Of a stretch of DNA of 64,000 nt, positions 9,311 to 34,086 are shown in pieces. The translations under genes and the position numbers were made by a program. The stretch spans positions 159,606-223,605 of the forward strand of contig CAVROO010000007.1 of NCBI GenBank assembly GCA_963722765.1, read 5' to 3'. The stretch is from an uncultured Acidobacteriota bacterium (lineage in GTDB: Bacteria; Acidobacteriota; Vicinamibacteria; Marinacidobacterales; DATDRI01). Position 1 is the stretch's first letter; every line of letters begins with the position of its first letter. The notes beneath the pieces are model-generated. The model was not told where the DNA came from. It saw only the letters and a program-made list of their open reading frames with translations, and did not search any database.

Positions 9311-9351
9311 TAATAATTAGCCTGGGCATTCTTCACAAACGCTATTTGAAC

Positions 9352-10395: not shown

Positions 10396-10745
10396 CGATC
10401 AGATATCACGACCTCTCCTCCTGATTAGTCTGAGCGGATCAATTATAGGAGAAATCGAGATCGAGAAGTTCGCTGGTACTGGAGAGGCATGGCGGGGTCG
10501 CCAAACAGATGGTAGATGCTCAACAGCTCAGGCAACCGACCCGTATCGGCGCAAGCCGCTTGAGCCGCTACGAGTCCCGGAAAGTGCCTTTCGAAGAAGT
10601 CCTCGAAAGCTTCCTCCTCCCCGGCCAGCATTCTCTCGACGAGATGCTTATCGCCCATCTCGGTTTGCCCTTATAGCAATCAGCTCCCCTCCCTTTCGTT
10701 AGTTTTAGAGGGGCGTTCACACGGAAATCTCGGTCAGAGCCCGTT

Positions 10746-11823: not shown

Positions 11824-11861
11824 TGTTCGAGCGCGAAGGTTTGAGTTTCATAGCGTCGCTA

Positions 11862-12905
11862 TCCCTTCTGATTACCCTTTGATTTCCCGCATCCAGCCGT
11901 GCTCGTCGGGCAAGTCTCCGTACTGGATTCCCGTCAACCTTCTCGTAGAGCGCCGTGCAATGGGGCCCCGGCTTTCCGTCTTTCAAGTAGACAATGGTCC
12001 GGTCCCGGTAGGTGATGCTCTCGATGGGCGTGATAACAGCCGCCGTTCCACAGGCGCCCGTCTCGACGAAAGTCGTCGAGCTCGTCGACGAGACGGGACG
12101 CTCTTCCACACTATAGCCCAGGTCGGCAGCCAGAGTCCGCAGCGACAAGTTGGTGATGGAACGAAGGATCGAAGGAGAGTTCGGCGTGACGTAGGCCTTG
12201 TCCTTGGTGATGCCGAAGAAGTTGGCCGCACCCAGCTCGTCGATGAACTTGTGCTTTTGCGAATCCAAGTAGAGGGCCTCGCCGTAGCCCTTGGATTGGG
12301 CCCTCACCGTGGCTCGCATGCCGGCGGCATAGTTGCCCCCCGCTTTGGCGGTCCCCACGCCGAGGGGCGCCGCACAATCGAACTCCTCTTCCACAACCAG
12401 CTTGGTGGGTGAAAAGCCTTGCTTGAAGTAGGGGCCCACCGGTGTGACCAAGACCAAGAAGAGATACTCGTCGGCAGGCGACACGCCAATCCTGGCGCCG
12501 GAGCCGATGAGGAGAGGTCGGACGTAAAGGGTAGCGCCACTACCGTAGGGCGGCACGAATCGCTTGTTGGCCCGAACAACGCGTTCGACGGCTTCACGAA
12601 CAGTTCCACCGGAGGCGCCTGCATCGAGAGCATCTCCGCCGAGTGCTGCATCCGTTTGGCATTCTCTTCGACGCGGAAGGACAGAATCCGGCCGTCCTTG
12701 GCTTCGTAGACCTTCAGCCCCTCGAACGCCGCCTGACCGTAGTGAAGAGCGAGGCGGCGATGTGAATCGGGAGGAGCTCCGAGTCGGTCTCTTCCCCGTC
12801 ATCCCATTTGCCCTCCCGCCAGCGGTAGCGAAGGTTGACGTCCGTTTTCTGAAAGTCGAAAGGCAGAGTGGCGTAATCCAAGTCGGCTTTTTCGATGGTT
12901 TTCAT
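11862..12905 (-). pseudogene. ilvE: branched-chain amino acid aminotransferase (class IV, type II), at least four frameshifts
   Basis: Pieces in three frames. MKTIEKADLDYATLPF (start 12905, SD GAGGAGG) in one frame. RMQHSAEMLSMQAPPVELFV in a second. EAVERVV...GSGATLYVRPLLIG...EYLFLVLVTPVGPYF...GVGTAKAGGNYAA...ETGACGTAAVITP in a third. C-terminus LTGIQYGDLPDEHGWMREIKG-stop in a fourth. Confidence 0.85.
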
Positions 12906-16289: not shown

Positions 16290-16995
16290 TCATTCGAAGG
16301 CCAGCCGGGCAAACCGATCCATCATGTTCGCAGAGGGCGACGGCATCACCGCTCGAATCAATTGATCTGCATCTTGGCCTTGCTTCAAAAGCTCGTCGCG
16401 TTGCCGGTCGATGTAATAGCGGAGCACCCGTTCGGAAAACTCGGGATGAAATTGCACCCCCCACTGCCTCTCACCAAACCGGACGGCGTGGTTGGGATCG
16501 AAAGCGGAGCTCGCCAGTCGGGTGGCCCCCGGCGGCAAGGTCAGAACCGACTGAGTATGCGTCGCGTAGGCCGGAAAGGACGAAGGCATGGCAGACATCA
16601 AGGAATCGTTTCGAGCCTCCGGAAGGCAACGAATCGAGACCGTACCGACCTCACGTCCTTCGGGATGATCTCCAACTTCGCCACCCAGAGCGTGAGCCAA
16701 GAGTTGGTGTCCAAAACAGATTCCGAAGACAGGGACGTTACTTTCAAGAAGCAAGTGGAGCCAGTTCGCCGCCCTTTCAATCCAAGGGTCCCCATCGGTC
16801 ACCATTTCGTGCGCACCGGTAATAATGACCGCTTCCGGGTGCGACGGAAACTCCGCCGTCGATTGAGCATCGACCACAAGAGTGCGTTCCTTTGGAACCG
16901 TAATGCCGCGAGCCACCCAATCCTCGAAATCGCCGTGTTGGCACGCCAGAATCCGCGAAAGTCGAGCCCGTCTTGAGAATAACTAGTCGACTCAT
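16290..16995 (-). CDS. class I glutamine amidotransferase (GATase1-like), one frameshift
   Basis: Start MSRLVILKTGSTFADS in ORF 16777..16995, then GICFGHQLLAHALGG...HPEF in ORF 16290..16916. Shift near 16960. Confidence 0.8.
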
Positions 16996-17119
16996 CTTCT
17001 TTATTCTTTTTGGGGTTTTCTTTTCTGGGTTCTCGAGCTCTCTTTTTCCGTAGCGAGACCAAATCCTATCAAACCGCGAGCCGCCAGCTCGTCACTTTAT
17101 CAGAACGGGCTATCATAGT

Positions 17120-17657
17120 TTGTATAAGGAGGGCGATGTGCCGGCGATCGGTCATTTGGCTGTTGGACTCGCAACGGCTCGAATCGGGGGAAGACCCGAA
17201 AGACGACCGCGCCTCGTGTGGCTCTGTGGTCTCGTCGCCCGTGCCTATCTCCCAGACCTCGACGTCATTGCCTTCAAGTTGGGCATCCCTTACCACGCGC
17301 CTTGGGGTCATCGCGGCGCCGCCCACTCCTTGGGCTTTGCATTGATTCTCGGAGCGCTGTTGGCCGCCGTCGGACGATTGAGCGGATGGTTCCCGGCTTC
17401 GGTCGGCATCCTGGGCGGCCTGGTCATGGCAAGCCACGGAGTCATGGATACTCTAACCGATGGCGGGCTTGGGATCGCGGTCTTTTGGCCTTCTCTCGAA
17501 CGAACGCTATTTTGCTCCTTGGACGCCTATTCCAGTCGCTCCAATCGGTCTCGGCATGTTCTCCTCCCGCGGCCTCTACGTGATCGGACGAGAACTGATT
17601 CTCTTCTCTCCCCTTTTCATGCTCGCCGCGTTGTGGCCAAGGAGGAAATGCCGTTGA
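17120..17657 (+). CDS. membrane-bound metal-dependent hydrolase, YdjM/DUF457 family, one frameshift
   Basis: GHLAVGLA...PDLDVI...HRGAAHSL motifs. C-terminal TM part FAPWTPIPVAPIGLGMFSSRGLYVIGRELILFSPLFMLAAL lies in ORF 17460..17657. Confidence 0.7.
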
Positions 17658-17662
17658 GTTGT

Positions 17663-18082
17663 TTAGACCTCACCAAGGGACAGGTCGCCGTAGATTTTGT
17701 AAACACGCCCGTCCCGTGCCACTTTGAGCTCGCGCTTGGGAAAGACTTTAGGTAGTTCGTCCTGTAGGAGCTTCACCACTTCACTCTCGATGGTCTCCCG
17801 AACATCATCAGGAACCTCGCTCAAAGTTGACATTTGTACCTGAAGAACATAGCCGGGCCCGAGCTCTGAGCCGAAGCCGGCGGTAAAAGCCGCTCCCACG
17901 TTGAAGAGCCCGTCGTCTTCCTTGTTTGAGGTGGTGTTACGTCGGGAACGAACCGGATGGAGAGGGTATTTCTTTCCGTACCGGTTTTCGAGCCGGTCGT
18001 CTATTCGATCGAACACCTTCTTCAGTTTTCTCTCCCACTTGACCGCCGCAGGGTGTCGCGCCATATTCAGGAAATCCTCCAC
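17663..18082 (-). CDS. hypothetical protein
   Basis: 139-aa ORF convergent with the YdjM-like gene. No known domain recognised. Confidence 0.4.
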   Translation of the reverse strand: MEDFLNMARHPAAVKWERKLKKVFDRIDDRLENRYGKKYPLHPVRSRRNTTSNKEDDGLFNVGAAFTAGFGSELGPGYVLQVQMSTLSEVPDDVRETIESEVVKLLQDELPKVFPKRELKVARDGRVYKIYGDLSLGEV

Positions 18083-18385
18083 CTCGCATCGGACCGCACC
18101 GCCCGACCTCTCGTATCGAAGTTAGCACAAAGTGGTGCGATAGCGTCACTCTACTTGGGCCTCTGAGGGATAAACCCTACAATTCCGGCGGGAAAAACCC
18201 AACTCGGCGACCGACCTCGAACTCACCATAAGGTATTGTTTTCCAATAACTTCGGCGCCTATGTGGACCGTTTGGAGGGCCACACTCGAGCTGGTCCAAC
18301 TATTGCATTTAGGTGAGGGACAAAATGATCTCATCACCTCGCCTGGGGTGAATGGACCCGCAGGCAGATTTGAGCAGGTAAACCC

Positions 18386-21169
18386 TTGAGCAGCATGGAT
18401 AGCGCCGTACCAGTCAACGACACGAGCGAATCCCAGAACGATACCGTCAAACTCGCACCCGAGGATTTGGAGAAACTCCAGCAGGCGGTAGCCAAAACTC
18501 TTGGTGACCGCTACGAGGTCTTGTCCCGCTTGTCCTCGGGCTCGCTGGCAGACGTATATCACGCCCGAGATTCGATGCTCGACCGCGAGGTGGCCATCAA
18601 GCGCGTTCGTCTCGACGGATTGACGAATCCGAACAACCGGAACGAGGCCAAAAAGCGCTTTCTCCGGGAAGCCAAGGTCGCAGCGAGGCTCAACCATCCC
18701 AATATCGTCACGATATATGACATCGTTGACTCCAAGACGGTGAGCTTCTTTGTCATGGAGTTCATCGACGGAACGAACCTCGAGAAGTTGCTCGAAGAAA
18801 AGAAGCGGCTGTCGTGGGATGAAACCCTTCACATTCTGACCCAAGCCGCCGATGCACTGGACCACGCACATCAAGGCACGGTCGTTCACCGAGACATCAA
18901 GCCGTCCAACATCATTATCGAGCGTTCCGGGCGGGTTAAAGTTGCGGACTTCGGGATCGCAAAATCCGAGACCTCCGGCAATATCACGACGACGGGAACG
19001 ATCTTGGGAACTCCCAACTACATGTCTCCGGAACAGGCCCGGGGGAACAGGAAGATCGACGGCCGCGCCGACCTCTTTTCGTTGGGATGCATCTTGTACG
19101 AGTGTCTTTCCGGAGACAAGCCGTTTCAAGCCGACAGCACCATCGGCATCTTGATGCGGATCGTCGGTGACGACATGCCCGAGCTCGATTGCGAGAAACT
19201 GGGGTTGGACCCCAAGGTGAGCGAGATACTACACCGAGCCCTTGCCAAGAATCCAGACGAGCGAATCGCAACGGGTGGAGAGCTTTTAGAGGCGCTTCAG
19301 ACGATTACGCATTCGGAACCGGATAGTCGCGAGACGAAGGAAGAGACGAGCGTGCCGGAAGAGCGGATCGAAGCGCCAGAAAAATCTGACGCAGGAGCGG
19401 AGGCAGAAGACAGCCAAGAGACAGAAGACGAACTGAAGGCTAAGGAACAGCAGAAGGCTGAGGAGCAGCAGAAGGCCGAGGAAACGCAGAAGGCCGAGGA
19501 AACGCAAGACGTAGAAGAAGCTGAGGCACCCGCGCCCAAGCCCATCACACGTCGCGACGAGGGCTCCGAGCCCGCATACGACAACACCTTGCAGGGTACG
19601 CTGGGCGAGAAAGACCTCGCGCATGTGATACGCGACGTCTATGTCAACCGCCGTACCGGAATCCTTCATCTAGTCCAAGAAAACGTCAACAAACGCATCT
19701 ACATCAAGAAAGGCTCGATCGTCTTTGCCAATTCCGACCTCAACGACGACCGTTTAGGCGAGTTTCTGATAAAACAAAACGTGATCGACCGCTCGGCCTT
19801 CGATGAAGCGGTCAAGGTCATGAAAGAAACGGGACATCGCCTAGGTGGGGCTCTCGTTGACCTTGGTCATCTGGACGAAGAAAAGCTCAACGAGCAGGTC
19901 ACCGAGCAAATCAAGAGCATCATCTTTTCAGTCTTCGAATGGGAAGCCGGGCAATTTGCCTTCGAGCGACTGGAGACTCCGGTCGAGGAAGACATTATCG
20001 TCGGCCTATCGACCGCCGACACAATCCTCGAGGGCATCCGACGGATGAAAAGCATGGACACCATACGCCAAGCTCTCGGACAGCTCGACCGGGTGCTGGC
20101 CCATCCCGAGAATCCGCTCCTCATGTACCAGAAATTCAGTCTCACGCCTGAGGAGGGTTTCGTGATGTCCCGAGTGGATGGCACGACGACCGTAGCGGAG
20201 GCGGCGGCACTTTCTCCCATGGGCGAAGAGGATACGCTTCGGTGCATCTACGGTCTCGTCTGCGCCGGTGTGCTCACGCTGGAAGAACGAGCACAGGAGC
20301 GTACCGATCGCCTGAAACGACTGACGAAAGCGGACGAGGCCAAGCTGCCCTCGCCCGAAGCCGAGATCAAGGAACAGCCGGCCAGAACCGCCCCCGTCAC
20401 CGACAAAGAAAAGAAGGATTCGAGTCCGACAGCGGAGCAGCAGGCGGTCAAGGACGAGATCGCTGCCAAGCATGCCTCTCTTACCACAGCAAACCACTAC
20501 GAACTACTAGAGGTGGAAACGACGGCGGACGAGGCTCAAATCAAAGAAGCCTACTATGCGATGGTGAAGAAGTATCACCCAGACCGGCATCACTCTCCTC
20601 ACTTCGAGGATTTGCACGGGCTTCTCGAAGATCTAATGGTCAAGGTCACCGCGGCCTACCAGTTGCTGTCCACACCGGTGGATCGTACGCAGTATGACAA
20701 GACACTTCGGTCCAATGAATCTCCTTCTGGGAAATCGCCCTTCGTTGATGATCCGGACGTCACAACCGCGACTCCCGAGGAAGTAGCGGAAAAACATTAT
20801 CGGGAGGGAAACCGTCTCTTCAACGAGATGGCCTATTTCGATGCGATCCAATGTCTCCAAGAGGCAGTGAGGCTAAATCCGAACAAGGCTTCCTTTCACA
20901 AACTACTTGCAAAAAGCTTGAGCAAGAACCCGAACTGGAGAAAGGACGCGGAAAGTCACTTCTTGAAGACCCTCGAGCTCGATCCCTCCGACGCGGAATC
21001 CTACGTGGGCTTGGCGATTATCTACGATGAGCTGGGGCTCTCCACCCGATCCCAAAAAACCTGGCGAAAGATACTCGAGCTCGAGCCCGATAACGATGTC
21101 GCCTACGCGAAGGTTCACGGCAAGAAGAAAAACGGCGGCCTGATGGGCCTTTTGAGAAAAAGGGCTTAA
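18386..21169 (+). CDS. multidomain Ser/Thr protein kinase: kinase + acidic linker + DUF4388 + DnaJ J-domain + TPR repeats
   Basis: Intact 927-aa ORF. Kinase subdomains VAIKRV, HRDIKPSNIII, DFGIAK, GTPNYMSPEQ. EEQQKAEE linker. DUF4388-like block (ILHLVQEN...IYIKKGSIVFA...LGEFLIKQNVI...LGGALVDLG...FEWEAGQFAFE). J-domain with HPD (NHYELLEV...KKYHPDRH). Then TPR repeats. Confidence 0.9.
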   Translation: MSSMDSAVPVNDTSESQNDTVKLAPEDLEKLQQAVAKTLGDRYEVLSRLSSGSLADVYHARDSMLDREVAIKRVRLDGLTNPNNRNEAKKRFLREAKVAARLNHPNIVTIYDIVDSKTVSFFVMEFIDGTNLEKLLEEKKRLSWDETLHILTQAADALDHAHQGTVVHRDIKPSNIIIERSGRVKVADFGIAKSETSGNITTTGTILGTPNYMSPEQARGNRKIDGRADLFSLGCILYECLSGDKPFQADSTIGILMRIVGDDMPELDCEKLGLDPKVSEILHRALAKNPDERIATGGELLEALQTITHSEPDSRETKEETSVPEERIEAPEKSDAGAEAEDSQETEDELKAKEQQKAEEQQKAEETQKAEETQDVEEAEAPAPKPITRRDEGSEPAYDNTLQGTLGEKDLAHVIRDVYVNRRTGILHLVQENVNKRIYIKKGSIVFANSDLNDDRLGEFLIKQNVIDRSAFDEAVKVMKETGHRLGGALVDLGHLDEEKLNEQVTEQIKSIIFSVFEWEAGQFAFERLETPVEEDIIVGLSTADTILEGIRRMKSMDTIRQALGQLDRVLAHPENPLLMYQKFSLTPEEGFVMSRVDGTTTVAEAAALSPMGEEDTLRCIYGLVCAGVLTLEERAQERTDRLKRLTKADEAKLPSPEAEIKEQPARTAPVTDKEKKDSSPTAEQQAVKDEIAAKHASLTTANHYELLEVETTADEAQIKEAYYAMVKKYHPDRHHSPHFEDLHGLLEDLMVKVTAAYQLLSTPVDRTQYDKTLRSNESPSGKSPFVDDPDVTTATPEEVAEKHYREGNRLFNEMAYFDAIQCLQEAVRLNPNKASFHKLLAKSLSKNPNWRKDAESHFLKTLELDPSDAESYVGLAIIYDELGLSTRSQKTWRKILELEPDNDVAYAKVHGKKKNGGLMGLLRKRA

Positions 21170-21229: not shown

Positions 21230-21640
21230 CTATCTTAGTGACTTCAAATAGGTAAATATCGCGGTAGCATCTTCCCGTGTCATTCGAAAAGGGGGCATGG
21301 GCGAGCGTGGAGTCTCGCCCGTCGGGCGAGACCCGGTTTGCATGAGGGTAACGAAGTCTTCCTCCTCCCATCCGGCTAGACCGGCGATTTTGGGAGCGGA
21401 CGACGCCCACTGCTCGTTGGGAAAAGGGGACGCAAAGGGTATACGGGCCCCGGCCAACGGTCGCTGCGCGATGAGCTCTCCTCGAGCGTCTCGCGGGGTG
21501 TGGCACTGAACGCACATGGCGACGCTTTCCACCAAGTACCGGCCTTGTTCCACTTGGCTATCCGTTTCTTCCGATCGGGACTCGCTCTGTAACCAGACCA
21601 AGACGACGGGAAGGGCCAAGATCCAAAAGATAGTTTTCAT
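21230..21640 (-). CDS. class I cytochrome c (monoheme), secreted
   Basis: Signal peptide MKTIFWILALPVVLVWL. Heme-binding CVQCH motif. Distal Met-rich C-terminus PRSPMPPFRM. Confidence 0.8.
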   Translation of the reverse strand: MKTIFWILALPVVLVWLQSESRSEETDSQVEQGRYLVESVAMCVQCHTPRDARGELIAQRPLAGARIPFASPFPNEQWASSAPKIAGLAGWEEEDFVTLMQTGSRPTGETPRSPMPPFRMTREDATAIFTYLKSLR

Positions 21641-21881
21641 CAGATTCTCCTGAGCTCGTGAATCGGCTGCATCGGGCTCCGCTCAATGGAATGAGATGTT
21701 GCTGGGCTCCCACCAACGGGCGTCCCTCCACATAATTCCTCCTGGCTGACGGGCCTTAATGCCCGCCCCTCTAGTGATACAAAAGCGTAAACAAAATTAT
21801 CTGTTTTGACGGCGCTAGAGGCAAGCAATTCTGGCTCAATCTGTCCGAAAGGCCAACTCGATTTTGCCTACTCCACGCTAT

Positions 21882-21897
21882 TGGCATAACGTTTGCT
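21882..21897 (+). promoter_or_regulatory. putative sigma-54 (-24/-12) promoter upstream of the sensor kinase gene
   Basis: TGGCATaacgtTTGCT matches TGGCAC-N5-TTGCW with correct GG/GC spacing, 26 nt upstream of the HK start. Confidence 0.6.
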
Positions 21898-21922
21898 CTA
21901 GAACCGGCGTCATGGAGAACTC

Positions 21923-23655
21923 ATGAAGCTTTTCGACTGGGCGGCACACCGCGGCGGCATGTCTCGAGTACTTTTCTCCAGTGCTTTGCTGGCACTCGGT
22001 CTCGTGCTCGTGGTCTGGGCCGGCAACCGCGCGACGAGGCGCGAGCTTCTGACGTTGCTCCGCGACCAAGCGGCGTCGTTGAGACAGACTCTAGCGGCGG
22101 CGGCACGCTCGAACTACGAAGCGAGCAAGCAAGCGGCCGGCGAGCTCGAGGTGCGCATGCTCGAGAGCGCTCACATGCTGGCCGAGCTCGACCGGCTCGA
22201 TTTACTGAATGAAAATCTACTCAACGAGATGGTTAGCCGAAACCGGTTGTTCCGTGTCACCATTTACGGGCCCAATCGCGAGGAAGAGTACGCCAGTGGA
22301 GGCGCCCGGGGTCCAAGAAGGGGCTTCGGTCCGGGATTCGCTACCGGGTACGGGGGGAGTCTTCTCGATCGATTGTACTCCGACGAAGAGGCCACACGAA
22401 GTTACGGATATACACGTGTCCCGCTGGGGCGATTGGAGGGGGTTCGCCGCCGTCCGGCGCGAATCGGGCGGTGCCATCGTATTGAACGTCGATGCCTCTC
22501 AAGATAAAAAGACTCGAGCGGCAATCTTCCCTCAATTACCTACTCGAAGACATCACCGAGAACGCGAGCGAGGTGGTTTATGTGGTTTTCGAACAGGACG
22601 CCCTCCACATCGCTCACGGCGATATCCCGAGCGACCTGGACATCGAATCCGCCCAGGACGGCACGACCTCAGACGGGAGGTGACCTTCACTCCGAGGAAC
22701 GCGAGACGGAAGTGGGCGGTCACTCCGTCCTCGAGTTCGCCGGCCCCATTGTCTTGGACGAGGAAACGACGGCGTTTCTGCGCCTCGGAATCAAGGCTCG
22801 ACGGACTGCGCCGGGCTGAGCAACGTATGCTGTGGCAACTCAGTCTGTCGCTGGCGGCGAGTCTAGCCTTGGCGTTTCTCGGTGTCGGTACGGTTTGGCT
22901 TCAGCGCAAGTACAGCTTGCTGAGTGAACGACACGATCGCACTCGGGAAGCCCTTCGGCGGAAGGATCGTCTGGCCGCCATGGGAGAGCTTTCCTCGACC
23001 GTGGCCCACGAAATAAGGAATCCACTGAATGCCATCTCCATGAGCGCCACGCGGTCTGCGTCGTGAGTTTTTGGACACCGTACCCGTTTCAGGCGACGAC
23101 CGAGAGGAGGCGGAAGAGCTCCTGGGTGTTCTCGAGGTCGAGTCGCGACGGATGAACGACCGGATTCAGCAGTTTCTGGACTTCGCCCGTCCTCCCCGCC
23201 TGGCGCCGCGTCCGACCGACCTTGGGGAGCTCACACGATCGGTAGAGGAAAGCGCAAGGGCTACAGGCGCTGCGAAAGGGGTGGAGGTCACTTCCGATCG
23301 TCCGGCGCCGGAATGGCCACAGTGGATCCCGAGCAGCTTCGGCAAGTCCTCGAGAACCTCGTCCGAAATGCCGTCGAGGCCACACCCGAAGGCGGCCGTG
23401 TATCCATCGTTGCCCGCCGCCGAGGGAAGTTCCACGAAATCGAGGTGACCGACACCGGGAAAGGGATCGAGGTTGAGCGACCTACCTCGTCTCTTCGATC
23501 TCTATTTCACTACGAAGACGGAGGGTACGGGCGTCGGATTGGCGGTGGCCCAGCAGGTAGTGACCGCTCACGGCGGAACGATCGAGGTGGACTCAACCCC
23601 GGGACGAGGTACTACAATGACCATCAAGCTACCACGTGCGGAAAGCAAATCATGA
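21923..23655 (+). CDS. sensor histidine kinase (membrane, HisKA + HATPase_c), multiple frameshifts
   Basis: N-terminal TM segment. HisKA H-box [23 protein letters not shown] in ORF 22209..23066. N-box and G-box pieces [16 protein letters not shown]...[10 protein letters not shown] and [31 protein letters not shown] in two further frames. Stop overlaps the RR start (ATGA). Confidence 0.8.
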
Positions 23656-25016
23656 GTGAACGGGTGGTTCTCGTCGTCGATGACGAAGCTTCGCAGCGCA
23701 AGGTCCTCTCCGGGTTCCTTCGCAAGCGCGGCTTCGTGACCCTGTCCGCGGAAAGTGTTGATGAAGCCCTCGAGCTCGCCGGTACCAACGTGATCGATCT
23801 CGTGATGACCGATCTCCGCATGCCCGGTCGAGACGGCATCGAGCTGCTTCGAGAGCTTCGGGCGATGAATCCCGAAGTTCCCGTGATTCTGATGACCGCC
23901 TTCGGTACCGTCGAAACCGCCGTTAACGCCATGAAGGAGGGGGCCTCGGACTACCTGACCAAGCCGATCGATCTCGACGAGCTCCTCATACTGGTGAACC
24001 GCAACCTGGAACACCGGGCACTCGAGTCCGAGAACCGGGAGCTTCGACGGCAACTCGAATCCCGTTATCGCCTGAAGGGCCTCCAAACATCGAATCCCAA
24101 AATGGCCCAAGCCATCAACGTTGCGGCTCGAGCGGCTTCGAGCCGCGCAACCATTTTGATCCGCGGCGAGAGCGGAACCGGTAAGGAGCTTCTTGCCCGC
24201 GCCATTCACTACGCGAGTCCTCGCGCCAAACGCCCATTGATCGCGGTCAACGTTGCGGCGCTTCCGGACACTCTTCTCGAGTCGGAGCTTTTCGGACACG
24301 AGCGGGGCGCGTTCACCGGTGCCGACCGGCAACACCGAGGCCGCTTCGAGCTTGCCGATACGGGGACACTTTTCCTGGACGAGATTGGGGATCTTCCTCA
24401 CGGCACACAGGCGAAACTGCTCCGGGCCCTACAAGAAAAATCCTTCGAGAGACTCGGCGGGACACGTTCGTTAAAAGTCGATGTTCGCGTACTCGCCGCC
24501 ACCCATCGTGACCTCGAGGAGATGGTTCGAAAAGGAGAGTTTCGAGAGGATCTCTATTACCGCTTGAACGTGGTCTCCATCGAGATTCCGCCTCTACGAG
24601 AACGCCGGGAGGATATTCCTCACCTCGTCGATCACTTCATTCGACAGTTCGCCGAAGAGAGCGATTCCCACGTAACGGGAATGTCCCGTGAGGCCATGGA
24701 CGGCCTACTCAAACACGATTACCCGGGCAACGTCCGCGAACTGGAGAACATGGTGCACCGTGCTATGGTGCTCGCTCGAGACTCCCTCCTCGCCGTTTCC
24801 GACTTTCCTCTCCATCTTTTAAATATTCAAAATGAAAACATTGCGCCGGACTCGCTCGTCGATCGCATGGCCAATTACGAGAAGGCGCTCCTGACCGAAG
24901 CGCTCGAAAAGGCCGGCGGAGTGAAGACCCGGGCAGCCCGTGCACTGGGTATCAGCGAAAGACATCTCCGTTACCGCCTGAGCAAATACGGCATCGAGCC
25001 CGGCGACAACGACTAG
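23652..25016 (+). CDS. sigma-54-dependent NtrC-family response regulator (REC + AAA+ sigma-54 activator + Fis-type HTH)
   Basis: REC domain (VVDDEAS...[14 protein letters not shown]). Walker [15 protein letters not shown] sigma-54 contact motif. ESELFGHE. C-terminal [18 protein letters not shown]. Intact. Confidence 0.92.
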
Positions 25017-25167
25017 CCGAGCTTCCCGCCGTTCATCGACACATTGGTCGATCGGAGTCGACCATATCGTCGAGCTTTTTGAGCCAACCTCCTACAGCCT
25101 GTCTCACCCGGTAATGCTATCGTCCTATTTTCAATCGTTTACGAAGTAAAGCCTCCTCCTATCGCAA

Positions 25168-25183
25168 TGGCCCTTCCTTTGCT
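25168..25183 (+). promoter_or_regulatory. putative sigma-54 (-24/-12) promoter driving the downstream DUF4405-polyferredoxin operon
   Basis: TGGCCCttcctTTGCT with canonical GG-N10-GC spacing, 23 nt upstream of the ATG at 25206 and directly downstream of the NtrC-like activator gene. Confidence 0.65.
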
Positions 25184-25205
25184 CTAAGAGTGGTCGGGAA
25201 ACGAA

Positions 25206-26120
25206 ATGAAGGAGCAGCTCATGAAAGATAACAGATTCCGATCGACCTTCTACACACGCGGCTTTACGACCTTCGTTCTGGTGATGTCGTTTCTCGTCAT
25301 CGCCGGGACCGGGATTGCCCTGTTCGCAACACCCCGGGGACGGGTGGCTCATTGGACCGACTGGACGCTCCTGGGTCTGGGGAAAGACCAGTGGAGCAGC
25401 ATTCACCTCACCGCTGCCGCCTTGTTTTTGTTCGCCGCCGCACTCCACATCGTCTTCAACTGGAAGGTCCTCAAAGGCTACCTCAAGTTGAGAAGAGTGG
25501 CGGGTCTTCGGCTCAAGCGCGAGCTCTTTGCCGCCGCCACGGTCAGCCTGTTGTTCGTAGCCGGCACTTTGGCTCAGGTTCCTCCGTTCAGCACCCTCGT
25601 CGATCTCCACCACGAGGTTAAGGATTACTGGGAGCAAACCAGCGTTCGGGCACCGGCGCCTCACGCCGAGGAGCACCATCTTTCAGCGCTTGCACAAAGG
25701 ATGGATCTTTCGACGGAGGACGTGGTCGCCACGCTCGAAGCCAGAGGTTTCACAAATCTGGAACCTGATAGGTCCTTGGCCCGAATCGCCAACGCCAACG
25801 CCGTTGCACCCAGCGAGATCTACGAAAGTTTAGAGCTCAACCATGAGCCTAGACGCCCGCAGTCCGAATCGGTCGGGCCGCGAATGGGCCGAATGACGCT
25901 CGGAGACTACTGCCGGGCCAATGGTATTTCTCTAGACCGAGCGATCGCGACTTTGCGGGATGACGGAGCTCGCGCTCACGAATCCTCGACGTTACGAGAC
26001 CTGGCAGGCTCACTCGACCTGAGACCCGGCGAGCTTGCGCGGAGGCTTGGGGGGCAAGGCGGGAATGGAGGGGTCGGAACGGAAGGCGACGACTGCAGCT
26101 CTACCCGTCGTAGTCGTTAG
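25206..26120 (+). CDS. DUF4405-like membrane protein (cytochrome-b-like 4-TM N-domain) with extended C-terminal soluble region
   Basis: N-terminal TM helices with conserved His residues (HWTDW, HLTAAALFLFAAALHIVFNW) typical of DUF4405. A ~170-aa C-terminal extension is unassigned. Confidence 0.6.
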   Translation: MKEQLMKDNRFRSTFYTRGFTTFVLVMSFLVIAGTGIALFATPRGRVAHWTDWTLLGLGKDQWSSIHLTAAALFLFAAALHIVFNWKVLKGYLKLRRVAGLRLKRELFAAATVSLLFVAGTLAQVPPFSTLVDLHHEVKDYWEQTSVRAPAPHAEEHHLSALAQRMDLSTEDVVATLEARGFTNLEPDRSLARIANANAVAPSEIYESLELNHEPRRPQSESVGPRMGRMTLGDYCRANGISLDRAIATLRDDGARAHESSTLRDLAGSLDLRPGELARRLGGQGGNGGVGTEGDDCSSTRRSR

Positions 26121-26128
26121 GTGCGGAA

Positions 26129-26545
26129 ATGAGATTACAGACATCACTCTTGCGGTTTCTCCGAGCCCTCGCCTTTCCGCTCATGATCGCCTTGGTCTCG
26201 ACACCCGACGCGAAGGCCTGTGAGATTGCCGTCAAGGTCAAGAGCGACCCGAAGCCCTCCTATCAGACGGGGGACGTCGTGGTCTTCGAGGTCACGGTTT
26301 TTCTCACCCATCACGACTGCCCGGAGGGAATCAAGGCGACCAAATTCAATGGTGAAGGACTCGAGCTTCTCGGGGCGACGAAGTGGAAAGAGATCAGCAC
26401 GGGAACCTACGTGCGGCTCGTCAAGGCAAAGGTAACGGCCGCCAAGGACGGCGCGGGGGCGCTGCACGCACGGAGGAAGTGTGACAAGGAAGGAGGGTAC
26501 GGTGTTGTGACGCTCGCCGTTCCCGCTTCGGATGATGATGTCTAG
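26129..26545 (+). CDS. hypothetical small secreted protein
   Basis: 138-aa ORF with signal peptide, 9 nt after the previous stop (operonic). Contains Cys/His residues (KACEIAV, HHDCPEG). Confidence 0.45.
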   Translation: MRLQTSLLRFLRALAFPLMIALVSTPDAKACEIAVKVKSDPKPSYQTGDVVVFEVTVFLTHHDCPEGIKATKFNGEGLELLGATKWKEISTGTYVRLVKAKVTAAKDGAGALHARRKCDKEGGYGVVTLAVPASDDDV

Positions 26546-26560
26546 GAACGTTAGCTGAGG

Positions 26561-27570
26561 GTGCTGCACATGAAATTTCATCATCGCTCGACCACCGTTG
26601 CCGCGATTTGCATCGTTCTCCTCTTTGGATTGGCCTCGGCCCCGGGACAAAACTCTGTCGATAAGGATAAGGGCGAAGCGCTTCTGGAAAACGAAGGATT
26701 CGAGAGCTTTGAAGAGTTCGAAACCCTCGATGAATCGGAGCTAGTCGAAGGCTCAGAAGAAGACAAACCCGCTCTCGAGCATCGCGGTTTTCGAATGGCG
26801 CTCATCGCGCTGGGATTCACGGTACTTGCGGGATTCCTAGTCCGATCCCGACGTCTACGGCCAACCCGAGCCGTTTTGCTCCTTGCCTCGCTCGCCGTTC
26901 TCGGTTTCTGGAATGGCGGCTGTCCCTGCCCCATTTCCAGTTTTCAGAACCTCGTTCTTTTTCTCCAAGGGGTTGACGTCAAGACTCATAGCCTGATCTG
27001 GTTCCTGGCCCTCGTTCCCATCACGTATGTCTTCGGACGAGTCTGGTGTGGGTGGATCTGCCATCTCGGGGCACTTCAGGAGTTCGTCCACAAACCGAAT
27101 CGGCTGGCCTTTTTACACGGTGAGGGTGCGCGTAAAGCCATGCGTGTCACGCGCTATGTTTTGTTCTTCTCGCTACTCGCCCAGCTCGCGCTGACGAAAG
27201 AGAACCTCTTCATCCACGTCAACCCCTTCAAGGTCGCGTTCAACATGAGATCTTTTTACTTGAGTGGTTGGATCCTTCTCGGCATCCTTCTTGTAAGCTC
27301 CCTGTACGTTTATCGGCCTTTCTGCCGTTCGGCTTGCCCGGTGGGTTTGATGCTGGGTTGGGTTGGGCGTCTGCCCTTTGCCTCCAAACTCGCTCTCAAC
27401 GACGACTGCCGGACCTGCAAGCTCTGTTCGAAGGCCTGTCCGGCGGAAGCCGTGACCACCGCTCATCAGCAAATCCAAATTAGACATGAAGATTGTTTTG
27501 CCTGTGGCTCTTGTATGGATGCCTGCAGGCGGGACTCAATTTCCTTTGAACGAAAGGGAGGCGTCGATGA
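26561..27570 (+). CDS. NapH/MauN/FixG-type membrane-bound 4Fe-4S ferredoxin; C-terminus uncertain
   Basis: TM helices with the CGWICHLGALQEF motif. Two ferredoxin motifs CRTCKLCSKACP and CFACGSCMDAC. The six-frame ORF runs to 27748, overlapping the next gene by 180 nt. A frameshift near the end would give a TGA overlapping the downstream ATG (ATGA) at 27567-27570. Confidence 0.7.
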
Positions 27571-28901
27571 CGACACGAGCAAACCGCATCACTTGGATCC
27601 TGGTTCTGTCTTTGTTCCTAGTAACAAAGTCAACGGTCGCTCAGGAATGCGACAGCCAAGTGGCGGCGCATCTGGAGCCGGTGAAGGAAGGGTCGGGGCT
27701 TTCGTGGGCGATGGAACTGACCGGCCAACTCGGTTACCTGGGTCATAGCTCACTCGATCGGGGCCTTGCCAGCGGCATGGTGTTTCTCGGTCTGCACTAC
27801 CAGTCCGACTTCGAATCTCCCCATCGCTTCTATTTCGAGGGTGGCTACAAGAACTGGTACAAGACCGACACCGGCCCGGGACTCGGCGGTGACGGGCAAA
27901 CCTTTGGTGATTTTCCAACTCCGGCAAAAGACAACTGGGGACTACGAGAAGCCTACTACGATTTCGACGGCGGCCAGACGAAGGTTACGGGCGGTCTCCA
28001 TACGGCGAGCCTCGGAGAAACGCTTCTTTTGGACGAGCGCGCTGTCGGTTTGAGCTTCCAGAGAGAGCTTGGACCGGTCCAATTTCAGATGACCACAGGC
28101 AGTGTCATGACTCGCTTCGCGAGAATGAAGGACTTCTGCGCCACTCGCCATGTCTATCGCGTCGTGCGCGGAGGACGGATCAATTACGTCGGTGACGGTT
28201 TCGGTGAAACGAATTTCTTGGGTGGCACCGTCTCTTGGTCACCCTCGGGCGGAGCGACATCGGACGACCTTGCCGGCGAGGAAGAGGAAGACGAATTTGG
28301 AGCATTCGAGGAGCTTTCTTCCTTCGAGGAATCCGAGGAAGGTCTCGTGCGCCGTGTGGGCGCCGTCTTCTTCGAAGAGTTCGGGTCTGCTTTTCTCGTC
28401 AACCAGCTTTATTACGGAGGACTCGCCGAGCTCAATCTATGGTCCGACCTCGAGCTCGAGCTCGAGTTGATCCACCAACATGTCGCCGATCATCGCGTGC
28501 TCGGATACATGGTCCAGGGTCAAAAGGACTTCACCTGGAAGTCGGGCGCCTTTACCGCCTTTCGGCTCGGTTACATCGGCAGCGCCGAGGTCGATCCGGA
28601 CGCCCGCTTCCGCCCCACCTTCAGCAATCTTTTTCTCGGAGAGGTCATGCGACTGGATGTCGCCAACATGCCTCTCGTTTTCGGGCGATTGAAACATACG
28701 CTTACTTGGAGAGGTAGGCCCTCTATCGGTTTTTTCGCCGTAGCACAAACCTCCGCAACACGTGCCGAAGAATACGACCTCGAGCTCGACGTCCATCTCA
28801 CCCGGGGTCTTCGTCTCTACGGGGTCGTTGGATTCGTGCGCGCCGAGTCTCTACCGTCGTCAACAACCGTCGCACGGGCGCAGTTCCGCTACGCTTTTTG
28901 A
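27567..28901 (+). CDS. putative outer-membrane beta-barrel protein (porin-like)
   Basis: AAGGGAGG SD 7 nt upstream. Signal peptide MTTRANRITWILVLSLFLVTKSTVAQE. Alternating amphipathic beta-strand pattern. Acidic linker EEEEDEFGAFEELSSFEESEEG. C-terminal RAQFRYAF with terminal aromatic residue. Confidence 0.6.
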   Translation: MTTRANRITWILVLSLFLVTKSTVAQECDSQVAAHLEPVKEGSGLSWAMELTGQLGYLGHSSLDRGLASGMVFLGLHYQSDFESPHRFYFEGGYKNWYKTDTGPGLGGDGQTFGDFPTPAKDNWGLREAYYDFDGGQTKVTGGLHTASLGETLLLDERAVGLSFQRELGPVQFQMTTGSVMTRFARMKDFCATRHVYRVVRGGRINYVGDGFGETNFLGGTVSWSPSGGATSDDLAGEEEEDEFGAFEELSSFEESEEGLVRRVGAVFFEEFGSAFLVNQLYYGGLAELNLWSDLELELELIHQHVADHRVLGYMVQGQKDFTWKSGAFTAFRLGYIGSAEVDPDARFRPTFSNLFLGEVMRLDVANMPLVFGRLKHTLTWRGRPSIGFFAVAQTSATRAEEYDLELDVHLTRGLRLYGVVGFVRAESLPSSTTVARAQFRYAF

Positions 28902-28917
28902 AGAGAGGGACGCGAAC

Positions 28918-29757
28918 ATGGCATGCAATCGAAGAGATTTCATTCGCCGGAGCGGATCGCTCGTGATCGCCGGGGCGACCGGTGGATCTCTCGCCAGTCT
29001 GCTCACGGGCTGCAGTGAGAGCACCTCAACGTCACCTCTTTATGGAATCGAGATCTGCCCCAATACCTGCACGGGTTGTGGAACGTGCATCGACTCCTGC
29101 AGCAGCAGCGCCATCCAGTTGCCGCGAGAATCATCGTTTGCCATCGATTCAGCAAAGTGTGTGGAGTGCGGCGATTGCCAATCGGTTTGTGAGCCGAAGG
29201 CAATCCACGTAGCGGCAAAAAAGATCGAGCTGAACGCCGACCAGTGCGTCGGCTGCGGCGACTGCCTCGAGGTCTGCCGGAACGAGGGCGGGGCAATCCA
29301 GTGGGAACGGGATCACTACCAAGTTGGCAGTAGTTGCCACCCCGGAAGGTGCGGCCGTCCCTGCATAAGCTCTTGCCCGGAGAACGCCATTACGACGGAG
29401 CAAGGGCGAGCTCACATCGACCGCGACCGTTGCACCCGATGCGGCCGATGTCTCGAGGTCTGTCCTTACGGAGCCATTTCTCCTGCTCGGGTTCTTTTCG
29501 ACGAATCAAAGTGCACCCGATGCGGAAAGTGCGCCGATGTGTGCAACCACAACGCGATCACGAGCCAGTTGCCTGCGATCGATTTCGAGCCCAGTATCGC
29601 GCTCGACCTCTGCAATCAATGCGGTTCCTGTGAAACCGCCTGCACGCACGACGCCATTATCGCAGAGCGGTATCAAGCGACGGTTGTGGCGGAACGTTGT
29701 TCGGGGTGTGGTTCTTGCGTTCCGACCTGTCCCTTCGACGCCATTCGGACGCTGTAG
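28918..29757 (+). CDS. Tat-exported periplasmic polyferredoxin with eight [4Fe-4S] binding motifs
   Basis: Twin-arginine signal MACNRRDFIRRSGSLVIAGATGG. Eight CxxCxxCxxxC-type motifs (for example CTGCGTCIDSC, CVECGDCQSVC, CTRCGRCLEVC, CSGCGSCVPTC). Starts 17 nt after the OMP stop. Confidence 0.85.
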   Translation: MACNRRDFIRRSGSLVIAGATGGSLASLLTGCSESTSTSPLYGIEICPNTCTGCGTCIDSCSSSAIQLPRESSFAIDSAKCVECGDCQSVCEPKAIHVAAKKIELNADQCVGCGDCLEVCRNEGGAIQWERDHYQVGSSCHPGRCGRPCISSCPENAITTEQGRAHIDRDRCTRCGRCLEVCPYGAISPARVLFDESKCTRCGKCADVCNHNAITSQLPAIDFEPSIALDLCNQCGSCETACTHDAIIAERYQATVVAERCSGCGSCVPTCPFDAIRTL

Positions 29758-30121: not shown

Positions 30122-30688
30122 ATGATGAGTCTCCTCAAAGACACCGAGGTGCGACGCTTCACGGCGCAGGAATACGACCGTCTCGGTGAAATGGGTTTCA
30201 TCTCGTCTGATGAGCGAGTCGAGCTCATCGAAGGAATCATTTGCAAGATGGGTCCGGAAGGTAAACGTCACGTGGCCGCCATTGAGCTGGTGCTCGACCT
30301 TTTCACTAACCGCCTAAAGGGCCGTCATCGTGTTAGGTCGCAACATCCGCTGACCGTGGCGATGGATTCCCAGCCGGAGCCTGACATCGCGATCGTGGAA
30401 GCCGCAGACCCGCGCGCGTACCTCGAAGCCCACCCGACAGCCGCACTTCTGGTGGTCGAGGTATCGGATAACTCGCTCGACAAAGACCTCACATGGAAGG
30501 CTAACCTCTACGCCCGGGGGAAGATCCCCGAATACTGGGTTCTGAACTTGGTCGAAGACAACCTGATCGTTTTTCGCAAGCCCTCTGAGGAAGGTTACCG
30601 AGAGAAGCGTACTCTCAAAAGAGTTGACACGGTCAGCCCGCTTAGATTCCCTGAAATTGAGGTAACCGTCGACAAGCTGCTACCCTGA
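30122..30688 (+). CDS. Uma2-family (DUF820) putative restriction-endonuclease-like protein
   Basis: Characteristic Uma2 pattern FTAQEYDRLGEMG...ELIEGII...EPDIAIVEA...EVSDNSLDKDLTWKANLYARGKIPEYWVLNL. Confidence 0.8.
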   Translation: MMSLLKDTEVRRFTAQEYDRLGEMGFISSDERVELIEGIICKMGPEGKRHVAAIELVLDLFTNRLKGRHRVRSQHPLTVAMDSQPEPDIAIVEAADPRAYLEAHPTAALLVVEVSDNSLDKDLTWKANLYARGKIPEYWVLNLVEDNLIVFRKPSEEGYREKRTLKRVDTVSPLRFPEIEVTVDKLLP

Positions 30689-32753: not shown

Positions 32754-33788
32754 CTACCATTTCAGAAGATAGGAGTAGTTTTTGAAGGTTTCGAAGCTGG
32801 ATTTCATGATGTCCTCTGCTCTTTGTGGACCAATCCAACGTCCGCCGATACTGGCTTCGTCCAACATGATCTGCAACGCTTCGTTTTCGAGCGCTTTTTG
32901 AATGGCCGATGAAAGACGTTCGAACCGCTCGGGATAATTGCGCTTGAATTCGGCAGAGGTGGCAAAGCCTCGCACCGACCCGGGCAGAACTGGAGCTTCA
33001 ATCCCCAAAGGTCTCAGCGCTTCGTTGACCGTCGGCACATCCCACAGAGGGCTGCGTTGATCGCTGACAATGGCTAGAGGTCGCAGATACTCACGGATAC
33101 TCTCGGACCCCTCGGCACTGATGACAATGAAGTCAACGACCCCGCCGGCCACCGCCGCTCGTGCCATGCCGCCGCTGTTGTAGGTCACCAGGTTGAGGTT
33201 TTCTTGAGGAATTCCATTCACCTCGAGCAGCAGCTTGGCCATCAGGTGACCGGCCGATCCCCGCACGACCGAAGCTTTGACGGTCTTGGGCTTGGTTCGA
33301 ATCGCTTCCAGCAATTCCGGTAGGCTTTCGAACTCCGAGTCCTTGTTGAGAGCGATCAGGTCCTCATCGAACCATTGAAAGTTCAGATAAGCGAAGTCTT
33401 CAATCCCGTATTCCGCGTTACCTTCGAGAACGGTGTTGATCAGATAGGGAGAGAATGTCGATGCAAATATGGTGTATCCATCGTGGGGCCTGCCCAAAAC
33501 ATAGTTGGCCCCTAGAAGGGTTCCCGCCCCTTTTTTGTTGATGACCCGAACCGGCTGACCGAGCTCTTCGGCCAATTGCCTCGACATGGCCCGAGCCATG
33601 CGGTCGGCGCTGCCACCCACACCGAAACCCACAACGACCGTGACCGGTTGATCAGGGAACTCCTGCGCCTGGGCGACAGACGGCAGACTCCAAAAGGAAA
33701 GCAACAAAACCAGGTTCAGTTTGGCGTATGTTTGCGACAAGCTTTCCACTCGCTCTTTGGCCCGCCGTTTGCTAGGACCGGCGGGCAT
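32754..33788 (-). CDS. tctC: tripartite tricarboxylate transporter substrate-binding protein TctC (Bug family)
   Basis: Signal peptide LVLLLSFWSLPSVAQA. Bug/TctC fold motifs PVTVVVGFGVGGSADRMARA and VTYNSGG. Start at the internal Met is approximate. Confidence 0.85.
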   Translation of the reverse strand: MPAGPSKRRAKERVESLSQTYAKLNLVLLLSFWSLPSVAQAQEFPDQPVTVVVGFGVGGSADRMARAMSRQLAEELGQPVRVINKKGAGTLLGANYVLGRPHDGYTIFASTFSPYLINTVLEGNAEYGIEDFAYLNFQWFDEDLIALNKDSEFESLPELLEAIRTKPKTVKASVVRGSAGHLMAKLLLEVNGIPQENLNLVTYNSGGMARAAVAGGVVDFIVISAEGSESIREYLRPLAIVSDQRSPLWDVPTVNEALRPLGIEAPVLPGSVRGFATSAEFKRNYPERFERLSSAIQKALENEALQIMLDEASIGGRWIGPQRAEDIMKSSFETFKNYSYLLKW

Positions 33789-34086
33789 TCTATGGCAAAA
33801 AACTCTATGCCTACAAAAAGGAGATCCCGTCCAAACCCTCTTCCCCGAAGCCTCGAAGACCGTTGGTTGAGTGCATCGACCCATTTTTCCGTATTTCTGC
33901 TGACTGGCCCAGTTCAGCACGTAACGCTGACATAGCGTGGCGGAGCCGCAACCAAAGTGCCGCCGCGCGCTATCAGCTCTCAGCCATCAGCTATCAGCTA
34001 AAGATTGTGTTTCTAGGCGCTTGCGCGCCTTGAGCGAAAATTTCTTGCCAAAAAAACAAGAAACTACGGATTAGTAGTACAGGGCC

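Follow-up and report, generated by a model that had tools for sequence, protein, structure and literature searches.

What is the role of an operon that encodes, side by side, an iron-sulfur protein of the cytoplasmic membrane, an outer-membrane beta-barrel and a periplasmic polyferredoxin? The question is raised by a region (positions 21230-29757) of a 64,000-nucleotide (nt) stretch of contig CAVROO010000007.1, from an uncultured Acidobacteriota bacterium; this whole stretch is called the window hereafter. The proteins of the region were analysed by means of an open reading frame (ORF) listing and scans against Pfam and NCBIfam. A preliminary description had read the operon as a trans-envelope electron-transfer module, with an iron-sulfur wire in place of a multiheme cytochrome. 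According to the present analysis, the module looks like a periplasmic redox unit that has a channel for solutes, rather than a wire of iron-sulfur clusters across the outer membrane. In particular, the operon may encode an envelope electron-transfer unit of the NapGH type, joined by two new partners and provided with a dedicated channel for solutes in the outer membrane, a reading to which somewhat less than an even chance is given here.

In any case, the genes form a conserved envelope redox unit, for which, as had been suspected, the literature searched yielded no description. Two of its core families, the barrel and a small protein with three conserved cysteines and one histidine (Cys3His), are new: they have neither a Pfam or NCBIfam model nor a named member.

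The operon

The operon comprises the following genes (aa, amino acids; Ig, immunoglobulin; Tat, twin-arginine translocation):

25221-26120 (alternative start 25206), plus strand: DUF4405 membrane protein; accessory gene, outside the conserved core
26129-26545, plus strand: small Sec-exported Ig-like protein, 138 aa; core component
26570-27748, plus strand: NapH-like polytopic iron-sulfur membrane protein; core component
27567-28901, plus strand: outer-membrane beta-barrel, 444 aa, with a signal peptide and C-terminal ...RYAF; core component
28918-29757, plus strand: Tat-exported lipoprotein polyferredoxin, 279 aa; frequent, non-universal partner of the core

As first described, these five genes are co-directional and tightly spaced. 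In the ORF listing, the intervals between them measure 8, 24 and 16 nt, and there is one overlapping pair, formed by the NapH-like and barrel genes, which share 182 nt in the window (27567-27748) and ~50 nt in Bacteroidales. They constitute a genuine operon, and all of them are under purifying selection when compared to the sister genome L032 (~86-90% nucleotide identity), with ratios of nonsynonymous to synonymous changes (pN/pS) of 0.12-0.20. An independent assembly (L033) matches positions 25061-28178 of the window with 99.87% identity and without gaps, so the sequence of this part is reliable. On the 3' side of position 29757, a terminator scan gave no clear end of the operon.

A core triad conserved across phyla

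The comparison covered 30+ related loci, all of them from metagenome-assembled genomes (MAGs) or metagenomes, which belong to Acidobacteriota, to many Bacteroidales/Bacteroidota, and to bins labelled Deltaproteobacteria, Gammaproteobacteria and Anaerolineales. The small protein, NapH-like and barrel genes follow each other in this order and in the same orientation in 23 of the 24 loci with visible upstream DNA; the exception, L011, carries a pair of barrel and polyferredoxin genes only. As to the polyferredoxin gene, 22 loci are informative, and in 13 of them it lies directly 3' of the barrel gene (the window, L002, L004, L005, L007, L011, L013, L020, L021, L023, L032, L034 and the P0006 contig). 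At the other nine (L001, L006, L008, L010, L012, L015, L017, L018 and L019) it is absent, as judged at the locus only, so that the gene might be found elsewhere in those genomes. The preliminary description had made its proposal depend on the co-conservation of barrel and polyferredoxin: the barrel is indeed linked to other genes of the operon, those for the small and NapH-like proteins, while its link to the polyferredoxin is limited to the said fraction of loci, which counts in part against the proposal.

The presence of the polyferredoxin correlates with a motif on the periplasmic side of the NapH-like protein, GGCPC, found in all seven aligned loci with the polyferredoxin and in none of the five without it, although these loci are not phylogenetically independent. 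Such a correlation between sequences would fit a direct functional contact between both proteins.

Homologs of the barrel are rare. A word search returned 10 matches among 5.8 billion proteins, and a profile search returned 164 clusters, with a sharp cutoff, among 1.84 billion representative proteins. Three proteins of 856-904 aa (P0160, P0164 and P0169) were called as fusions of the NapH-like protein and the barrel; these are probably frameshifts or gene-calling artefacts. Besides, one locus (L036, positions 9001-12027 and 16839-18378) is degenerate: it has the small protein, a short NapH-like protein of 324 aa and a barrel cut to an N-terminal stub of 127 aa.

Properties of the encoded proteins

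The small protein was correctly described as a secreted Cys/His protein. It has a site of the signal-peptidase-I type, after which an invariant Cys-Glu forms the mature N-terminus (C31), and alignments show that H61, C64 and C118 are also invariant. The AlphaFold2 (AF2) model is an Ig-like beta-sandwich, with a predicted local distance difference test score (pLDDT) of 83. No match to the protein was found in Pfam or NCBIfam.

The NapH-like protein consists of (i) a signal or anchor helix; (ii) an acidic periplasmic segment with (D/E)EF repeats; (iii) the GGCPC motif; (iv) the motifs CX3C[H/Y] and CX3CP; and (v) a C-terminal 2x[4Fe-4S] part. The Fer4_5 family (1.3e-15) matches two stretches of the protein, which contains the sequences WCGWICH and FCRSACP, two CxxCxxCxxxC motifs and 5-6 hydrophobic helices. 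A NapH-like character is borne out by Fer4_5 and the C-terminal 2x[4Fe-4S], at scores far under the family cutoffs: 82.7 bits against TIGR02163 NapH/MauN (cutoff 213.05) and 77.8 against the NapH equivalog NF007013 (cutoff 234). Every NapH-like homolog has the (D/E)EF-rich segment in its N-terminal periplasmic part, and some are also Cys-rich there.

That the third core protein is an outer-membrane barrel, as proposed, agrees with its signal peptide, its C-terminal Phe and an 18-strand AF2 model with the fold of substrate-specific channels; neither Pfam nor NCBIfam gave any match to it at E <= 0.01. The most conserved motifs, FARMKDFCATRHVY and FSNLFLGEVMRLD, are placed in long loops rather than in strands, and in the model these loops probably line the pore. 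Strands 8 and 9 are separated by an acidic, DEF-rich segment which, judging from strand parity in the model, would be a periplasmic turn.

The (D/E)EF repeats are conserved across phyla, at residues ~35-70 of the NapH-like protein (window 26670-26780) and ~228-257 of the barrel (28250-28340). Cation binding, or the docking of a partner common to both proteins, might be their role. The idea that a basic small protein docks on these acidic segments was considered and dropped: most Bacteroidales homologs have an isoelectric point of 9-9.6, and the window protein one of 7.0.

The polyferredoxin carries a twin-arginine signal (RRDFIRR), a lipobox (LLTGC) and eight [4Fe-4S] motifs. A Tat signal and a lipobox are present in all ten homologs examined, with 8, 10 or 12 cluster motifs. 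The Tat export and the eight motifs reported earlier stand; the lipobox marks the protein as a lipoprotein as well. Regarding its affinities, Pfam gives 13 matches, with multiple Fer4 families among them; NapG/MauM models are not among the best 25 NCBIfam matches, and the score with NapF is 75, under its cutoff of 102. The best sequence relatives in the PDB are MvhB (8e-23) and FwdF (1e-18), with beta subunits of complex iron-sulfur molybdoenzymes (CISM) near 1e-4. Had the protein been a CISM beta subunit (NrfC/PsrB/DmsB), the initial proposal would have lost its ground. This candidate was rejected: Fer4_11 is not among the Pfam matches, MvhB and FwdF are nearer, and no molybdopterin enzyme or other catalytic Mo-subunit is encoded at any of the loci.

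Regulation of the operon

Upstream of the operon, the following features can be differentiated:

21882-21897, plus strand: sigma-54-type -24/-12 element, TGGCAT-N5-TTGCT, TGGCATAACGTTTGCT; 26 nt 5' of the kinase start codon
21923-23655, plus strand: sensor histidine kinase gene, frame-interrupted; two transmembrane (TM) helices, ~270-aa periplasmic domain, HisKA, HATPase_c
23652-25016, plus strand: NtrC-type sigma-54 activator; receiver domain, AAA+ domain with GAFTGA, Fis-type helix-turn-helix
25036-25051 and 25058-25073: palindrome pair TCGAC-N6-GTCGA; candidate activator (enhancer) sites
25168-25183, plus strand: sigma-54-type -24/-12 element, TGGCCC-N5-TTGCT, TGGCCCTTCCTTTGCT; 5' of the five-gene operon

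Control of the operon by sigma-54 and an NtrC-type activator, already put forward in the preliminary description, is well supported at the level of sequence. The pattern TGGC-N7-TTGCT has three matches in the window versus 0.26 expected, and two of the three sit in the correct intergenic positions, in front of the kinase gene and of the operon. The third match (TGGCCCGCCGTTTGCT, 33758-33773, plus strand) lies inside a minus-strand TctC-like ORF (32754-33920), with no plus-strand gene downstream, and is probably due to chance. Both intergenic elements are conserved in relatives: the operon promoter is kept as TGGCCCGCCTCTTGCT in L004, whose barrel has ~63% protein identity, and as TGGCCCATCCTTTGCT in L032, within intergenic DNA otherwise poorly conserved, and the kinase promoter appears in L004 as GGGCAT-N5-TTGCT at the aligned position.

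Furthermore, TCGAC-N6-GTCGA occurs twice in the 64 kb of the window (0.32 matches expected), and these sole two sites are the pair upstream of the operon. The distance between the palindromes is 22 bp, and they lie 95-132 bp upstream of the -24 element; in L004 the pair recurs with identical spacing, and in L032 with one mismatch per site. Together with the adjacent activator gene, the pair has the classic enhancer layout predicted for an NtrC-type activator. The activator was identified as such by Sigma54_activat (3.6e-72), Response_reg (5e-32) and HTH_8 (4e-12), in addition to its GAFTGA motif. Since it falls below every NCBIfam equivalog cutoff, it cannot be assigned to AtoC, NtrC or ZraR. 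All in all, a GG-N10-GC element at the right distance from the gene, a neighbouring activator with GAFTGA and upstream sites are all present, and the operon is probably switched on by the sigma-54 activator.

The kinase gene requires separate consideration. Its identity and its own -24/-12 promoter agree with what had been reported, but there is no single ORF here: the three-frame translation shows seven frame shifts within 21923-23655. An alignment with the ortholog of L032, which is intact and 576 aa long, reveals six insertions of one base (near 22394, 22503, 22671, 22792, 23055 and 23476) and one single-base deletion (near 23298), none of them in homopolymers. The pN/pS of the kinase gene is 0.18, versus 0.12-0.22 for the neighbouring genes, and the other genes of the locus differ from L032 by in-frame indels only. 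Consequently, the kinase coding sequence must have been under selection until very recently. The reading as an old pseudogene was rejected in view of this normal pN/pS and of the lack of independent in-frame stops, as the only ones are those created by the frame shifts. Seven indels with at most ~1% extra substitutions fit better with a local assembly error or very recent decay. Single frame breaks were also seen in other MAG loci, in the kinase gene of L004 (~5740) and in the barrel gene of L018 (10330), which indicates that frameshifts are not rare in this type of assembly.

Lineage-specific additions

Next to the kinase gene, on the side opposite to the operon, lies one more redox gene:

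21230-21640, minus strand: monoheme cytochrome c, 136 aa, with a signal peptide and CVQCH; Pfam Cytochrom_C 26.3 bits versus a cutoff of 21.3

Contrary to the preliminary description, which had called it convergent, this gene is divergent from the operon and head-to-head with the sensor kinase gene; the sole gene with which it converges is that of the Ser/Thr kinase upstream. L004, L032 and the P0006 contig have it at the equivalent position; no other locus contains it. Likewise, the kinase/NtrC pair is found in Acidobacteria-type loci only, and so is DUF4405, except for one distant copy in L015.

The DUF4405 protein had been proposed to be a di-heme b protein. Its membership of the family stands (Pfam PF14358, 59.1 bits versus a gathering score of 26.7, E 6.5e-16), while its topology does not accord with the di-heme form: it has three predicted TM helices, His62 and His76 in TM2, and a soluble C-terminal part of ~170 aa. 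The family has been shown to bind heme b in a six-TM form with four central His ligands (PMC11334425). With three TM helices and two His only in TM2, a di-heme site would need a dimer (PMC11334425); by analogy, a FezC-like homodimer could restore the heme sites. In L032, a clean deletion of ~833 bp (window 25238-26070; L032 9930-10000) removes the DUF4405 gene and keeps the sigma-54 promoter, the first and last codons, and the remaining genes. The gene is thus dispensable in the sister genome and accessory; as a core part it was rejected owing to this deletion and to the occurrence of homologs elsewhere in unrelated contexts.

Neighbouring genes

A Pfam scan of 125 neighbouring proteins of the related loci yielded the following recurrent families: TetR (9), DUF2202 (5), MMPL (5), DUF1302-like (5), LolA-like (4), ArsP_1 permease (4) and cupin (4). 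Among these 125 proteins there were no molybdoenzymes, catalytic oxidoreductases, multiheme cytochromes or ApbE/FMN-binding proteins, and neither they nor the operon included nap (nitrate reductase) or mau (methylamine dehydrogenase) genes.

As to individual loci, L007 and L013 have a pair of extracytoplasmic function (ECF) sigma and anti-sigma factors, in L007 with a resistance-nodulation-division (RND) pump downstream. In several Bacteroidota loci the operon includes a sub-module that encodes an ArsP_1-type permease together with a small-protein paralog devoid of Cys, namely in L020 (12500-13898), L021 (12679-14057) and L034 (7597-8996), and ArsP_1 genes are nearby in L013 and L023. Downstream of the degenerate locus L036 there are ECF sigma, Metal_resist and CzcB/RND genes, those for Metal_resist and CzcB at a distance of a few kb. 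Finally, in three Bacteroidota loci the module is directly adjoined by proteins with a C-terminal sorting domain of the type IX secretion system (T9SS): a DUF2202 ferritin-like protein in L002 (2680-3654), a BNR/sortilin-like protein in L011 (12314-14719) and a DUF2271+CBM96 protein in L020 (4640-7876).

In the window itself, a Uma2-family gene (putative restriction endonuclease-like; 30122-30688) is located between the polyferredoxin and TctA genes. It is missing from L032, where TctA is directly 3' of the polyferredoxin gene, and is probably a recent insertion. At the other end of the region, the Ser/Thr protein kinase (927 aa, 18386-21169), with C-terminal DnaJ and TPR-like regions, is syntenic in L032.

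Comparison with known systems

The quinol-dehydrogenase-type modules NapGH, NosGH and MauMN likewise combine, in one operon, a polytopic NapH-like membrane protein (with CX3C motifs and 2x[4Fe-4S] on the cytoplasmic side) and a Tat-exported periplasmic poly-[4Fe-4S] ferredoxin (PMC5449189; PMC8238504). NapGH-type modules act as a modular electron link between membrane and periplasm (PMC5449189; PMC8238504), and NapH-like modules serve both reductases and oxidases (PMC8238504). Nevertheless, the window differs from them as follows: (i) its NapH-like protein is far under the family cutoff and has the extra acidic DEF-repeat periplasmic segment; (ii) ferredoxins of the window type have 8-12 clusters and a lipid, while those of the NapG/MauM type have four motifs and are soluble; (iii) there are no nap, nos or mau catalytic genes; and (iv) the barrel and the Cys3His Ig-like protein are obligatory partners and the ferredoxin is optional. 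In short, what is new relative to NapGH-type modules is the obligatory porin-sized channel and Cys3His protein, the long lipidated ferredoxin and the lack of a catalytic partner.

The MtrCAB and Geobacter Pcc systems share with the operon a barrel gene that adjoins the gene of a periplasmic multi-centre redox protein, plus a lipoprotein redox component. In contrast to them, no multiheme cytochrome is encoded here (the sole CxxCH protein is the one-heme protein of 136 aa, lineage-specific and outside the operon), the redox wire is absent at nine informative loci, and the barrel does not qualify as a large sheath barrel like MtrB. As for the polyferredoxin, the archaeal MvhB and FwdF are also chains of clostridial-type 2x[4Fe-4S] domains that act as electron wires, but they are cytoplasmic subunits (of hydrogenase/heterodisulfide reductase and formylmethanofuran dehydrogenase complexes), whereas the window protein is bacterial, Tat-exported and lipidated.

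The CcoG/FixG cupric reductase, reportedly described by Marckmann et al. in 2019, is said to combine a Fer4_5 membrane protein with a periplasmic Ig-like domain. Here, instead, the Ig-like part is a separate protein with Cys3His, and there is no cbb3 oxidase context. In the Pfam scan, Fer4_18 gave E 1e-3, below the cutoff, and FixG_C gave no match. The channels of the OprD/Occ, AlgE and ChiP types share only the fold with the barrel, with 9-13% identity in structural alignments; only the barrel family of the window has the conserved loop motifs with Cys/His and the acidic DEF turn. Lastly, flavinylation-associated systems also have NapH-like and DUF4405 classes of membrane electron-transfer proteins (PMC8238504; PMC11334425), but no ApbE/FMN-binding domain is encoded in or near any locus here, and DUF4405 is a 3-TM protein, dispensable in L032.

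Possible functions of the module

According to the reading of the operon as an envelope redox unit with a solute channel, the NapH-like protein would take electrons at the cytoplasmic membrane, either from quinol or from a cytoplasmic donor via its 2x[4Fe-4S], and hand them over on the periplasmic side. In this variant of the module, the membrane-anchored 8-cluster polyferredoxin would carry them through the periplasm. The small Ig-like protein, with its N-terminal Cys and its His/Cys/Cys residues, would be the terminal binding or redox site, and the 18-strand barrel would admit or release a small soluble substrate. DUF4405 and cytochrome c would provide optional, lineage-specific extra links to the membrane electron pool. 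The kinase, if functional, would sense a periplasmic signal, and the phosphorylated activator would bind the TCGAC-N6-GTCGA pair and open the promoter at 25168. A soluble substrate is preferred because the barrel has the fold of a substrate-specific channel, its conserved residues are in loops, and some of the partners are inner-membrane permeases. With low confidence, the preferred substrates are thiophilic metal or metalloid ions, whose reduction in the periplasm would serve detoxification or uptake, since Cys/His are conserved in all three core proteins, the periplasmic segments are acidic and Cys-rich, and the neighbours are transporters and stress regulators. The reading as a whole is also favoured by the constant order and orientation of the triad, the purifying selection on the operon, the likeness of the NapH-like and Tat-polyferredoxin pair to NapGH, the correlation of GGCPC with the polyferredoxin, the lack of catalytic oxidoreductases, multiheme cytochromes and ApbE/FMN proteins among the 125 neighbours, and the conservation of promoter and palindromes in L004 and L032.

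Some observations weigh against this interpretation. The metal or metalloid idea is based on the composition of motifs and on neighbours which are not constant from locus to locus, and the fold of the small protein matches only generic Ig-like folds, with a weak top Foldseek match (AmoB, E 1.3e-4). Confidence in the AF2 model of the barrel is moderate (pLDDT 64), and the conserved loops are precisely its poorly modelled parts. In the sequence of the window the kinase gene is broken. Nearly half of the loci have no polyferredoxin, which therefore is not essential to the core reaction. Moreover, the T9SS-secreted proteins could point outward, to the cell surface.

This last point also favours a cytochrome-free trans-envelope conduit, in which the NapH-like protein feeds a lipoprotein polyferredoxin of 8-12 clusters that spans the periplasm and meets or enters the barrel, with an extracellular acceptor or surface proteins beyond it. 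Its arguments are that in 13 loci, from several phyla, the barrel gene has that of the polyferredoxin immediately after it, including L011, where these two form a pair on their own; that the polyferredoxin is always a Tat lipoprotein, whose 8, 10 or 12 clusters would make a long wire; that T9SS-tailed surface proteins adjoin the module in L002 (DUF2202), L011 (BNR) and L020 (DUF2271); and that the module encodes no catalytic reductase. However, an 18-strand lumen that already holds conserved loops should be unable to accommodate a ferredoxin domain, the barrel is retained without the polyferredoxin at nine informative loci, and partners such as inner-membrane permeases and efflux pumps suggest a soluble substrate. 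Because of the type of barrel and of those nine loci the conduit is disfavoured and appears quite unlikely; the same judgement applies to a variant in which the small Cys3His protein is the hand-over point, with secreted surface proteins in Bacteroidota. The part of the trans-envelope proposal that survives is the set of conserved envelope redox genes, while its conduit is at odds with the barrel, with the loci that lack the polyferredoxin and with recurrent neighbours that are regulators and transporters (TetR, ECF sigma, MMPL/RND, ArsP_1-type) and not components of extracellular electron transfer. Metal trafficking by a split system of the CcoG/FixG kind, a narrower form of the main reading with acquisition, and neither detoxification nor respiration, as its purpose, is an unlikely explanation too: the NapH-like protein would be a metal reductase (e.g., cupric or ferric), the small protein a periplasmic chaperone in the role of the C-terminal Ig-like domain of CcoG, and the barrel, with or without the ArsP_1-type permease, the import route. 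The union of a Fer4_5 membrane protein and an Ig-like periplasmic domain recalls CcoG (with a weak Fer4_18 match, below cutoff, in its favour), the mature N-terminal Cys and the His/Cys loops suggest a metal site, and the N-terminal residue of AmoB, the weak best Foldseek match, binds Cu; acidic DEF repeats on both membrane proteins and a permease inside the operon at some loci point in the same direction. Yet the small protein has no sequence match to FixG_C or to any metallochaperone family in Pfam or NCBIfam, TetR, ECF sigma factors and efflux pumps fit stress or detoxification better than acquisition, and there is no link to genes for cbb3 oxidase or other cuproenzymes. Very unlikely, finally, is a reverse flow, by which a substrate taken in via the barrel in reduced form (e.g., Fe(II), sulfide or an organic compound) would be oxidised in the periplasm and its electrons would reach the quinone pool through the polyferredoxin and the NapH-like protein. 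[4Fe-4S] polyferredoxins are usually low-potential proteins, suited to reduction, which counts against it, as do the lack of an oxidase-type catalytic subunit and the fact that most other hosts are anaerobic sediment Bacteroidales MAGs without the accessory cytochromes. On the other side, the adjacent cytochrome c and DUF4405 could link the module to an aerobic chain in Acidobacteria, and NapH-like modules work with reductases and oxidases alike (PMC8238504).

Implications

At least three or four phyla contain the core triad, on which purifying selection acts. As a periplasmic redox unit with its own solute channel, the module would give the modular machinery of NapH-type electron transfer a new output, and its polyferredoxin would be the first periplasmic, lipid-anchored long polyferredoxin in the literature searched. 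If the conduit were true after all, it would amount to extracellular electron transfer of a new kind. With a metal or a metalloid as substrate, the operon would constitute a new envelope pathway of redox detoxification or uptake in sediment Bacteroidales and soil Acidobacteriota.

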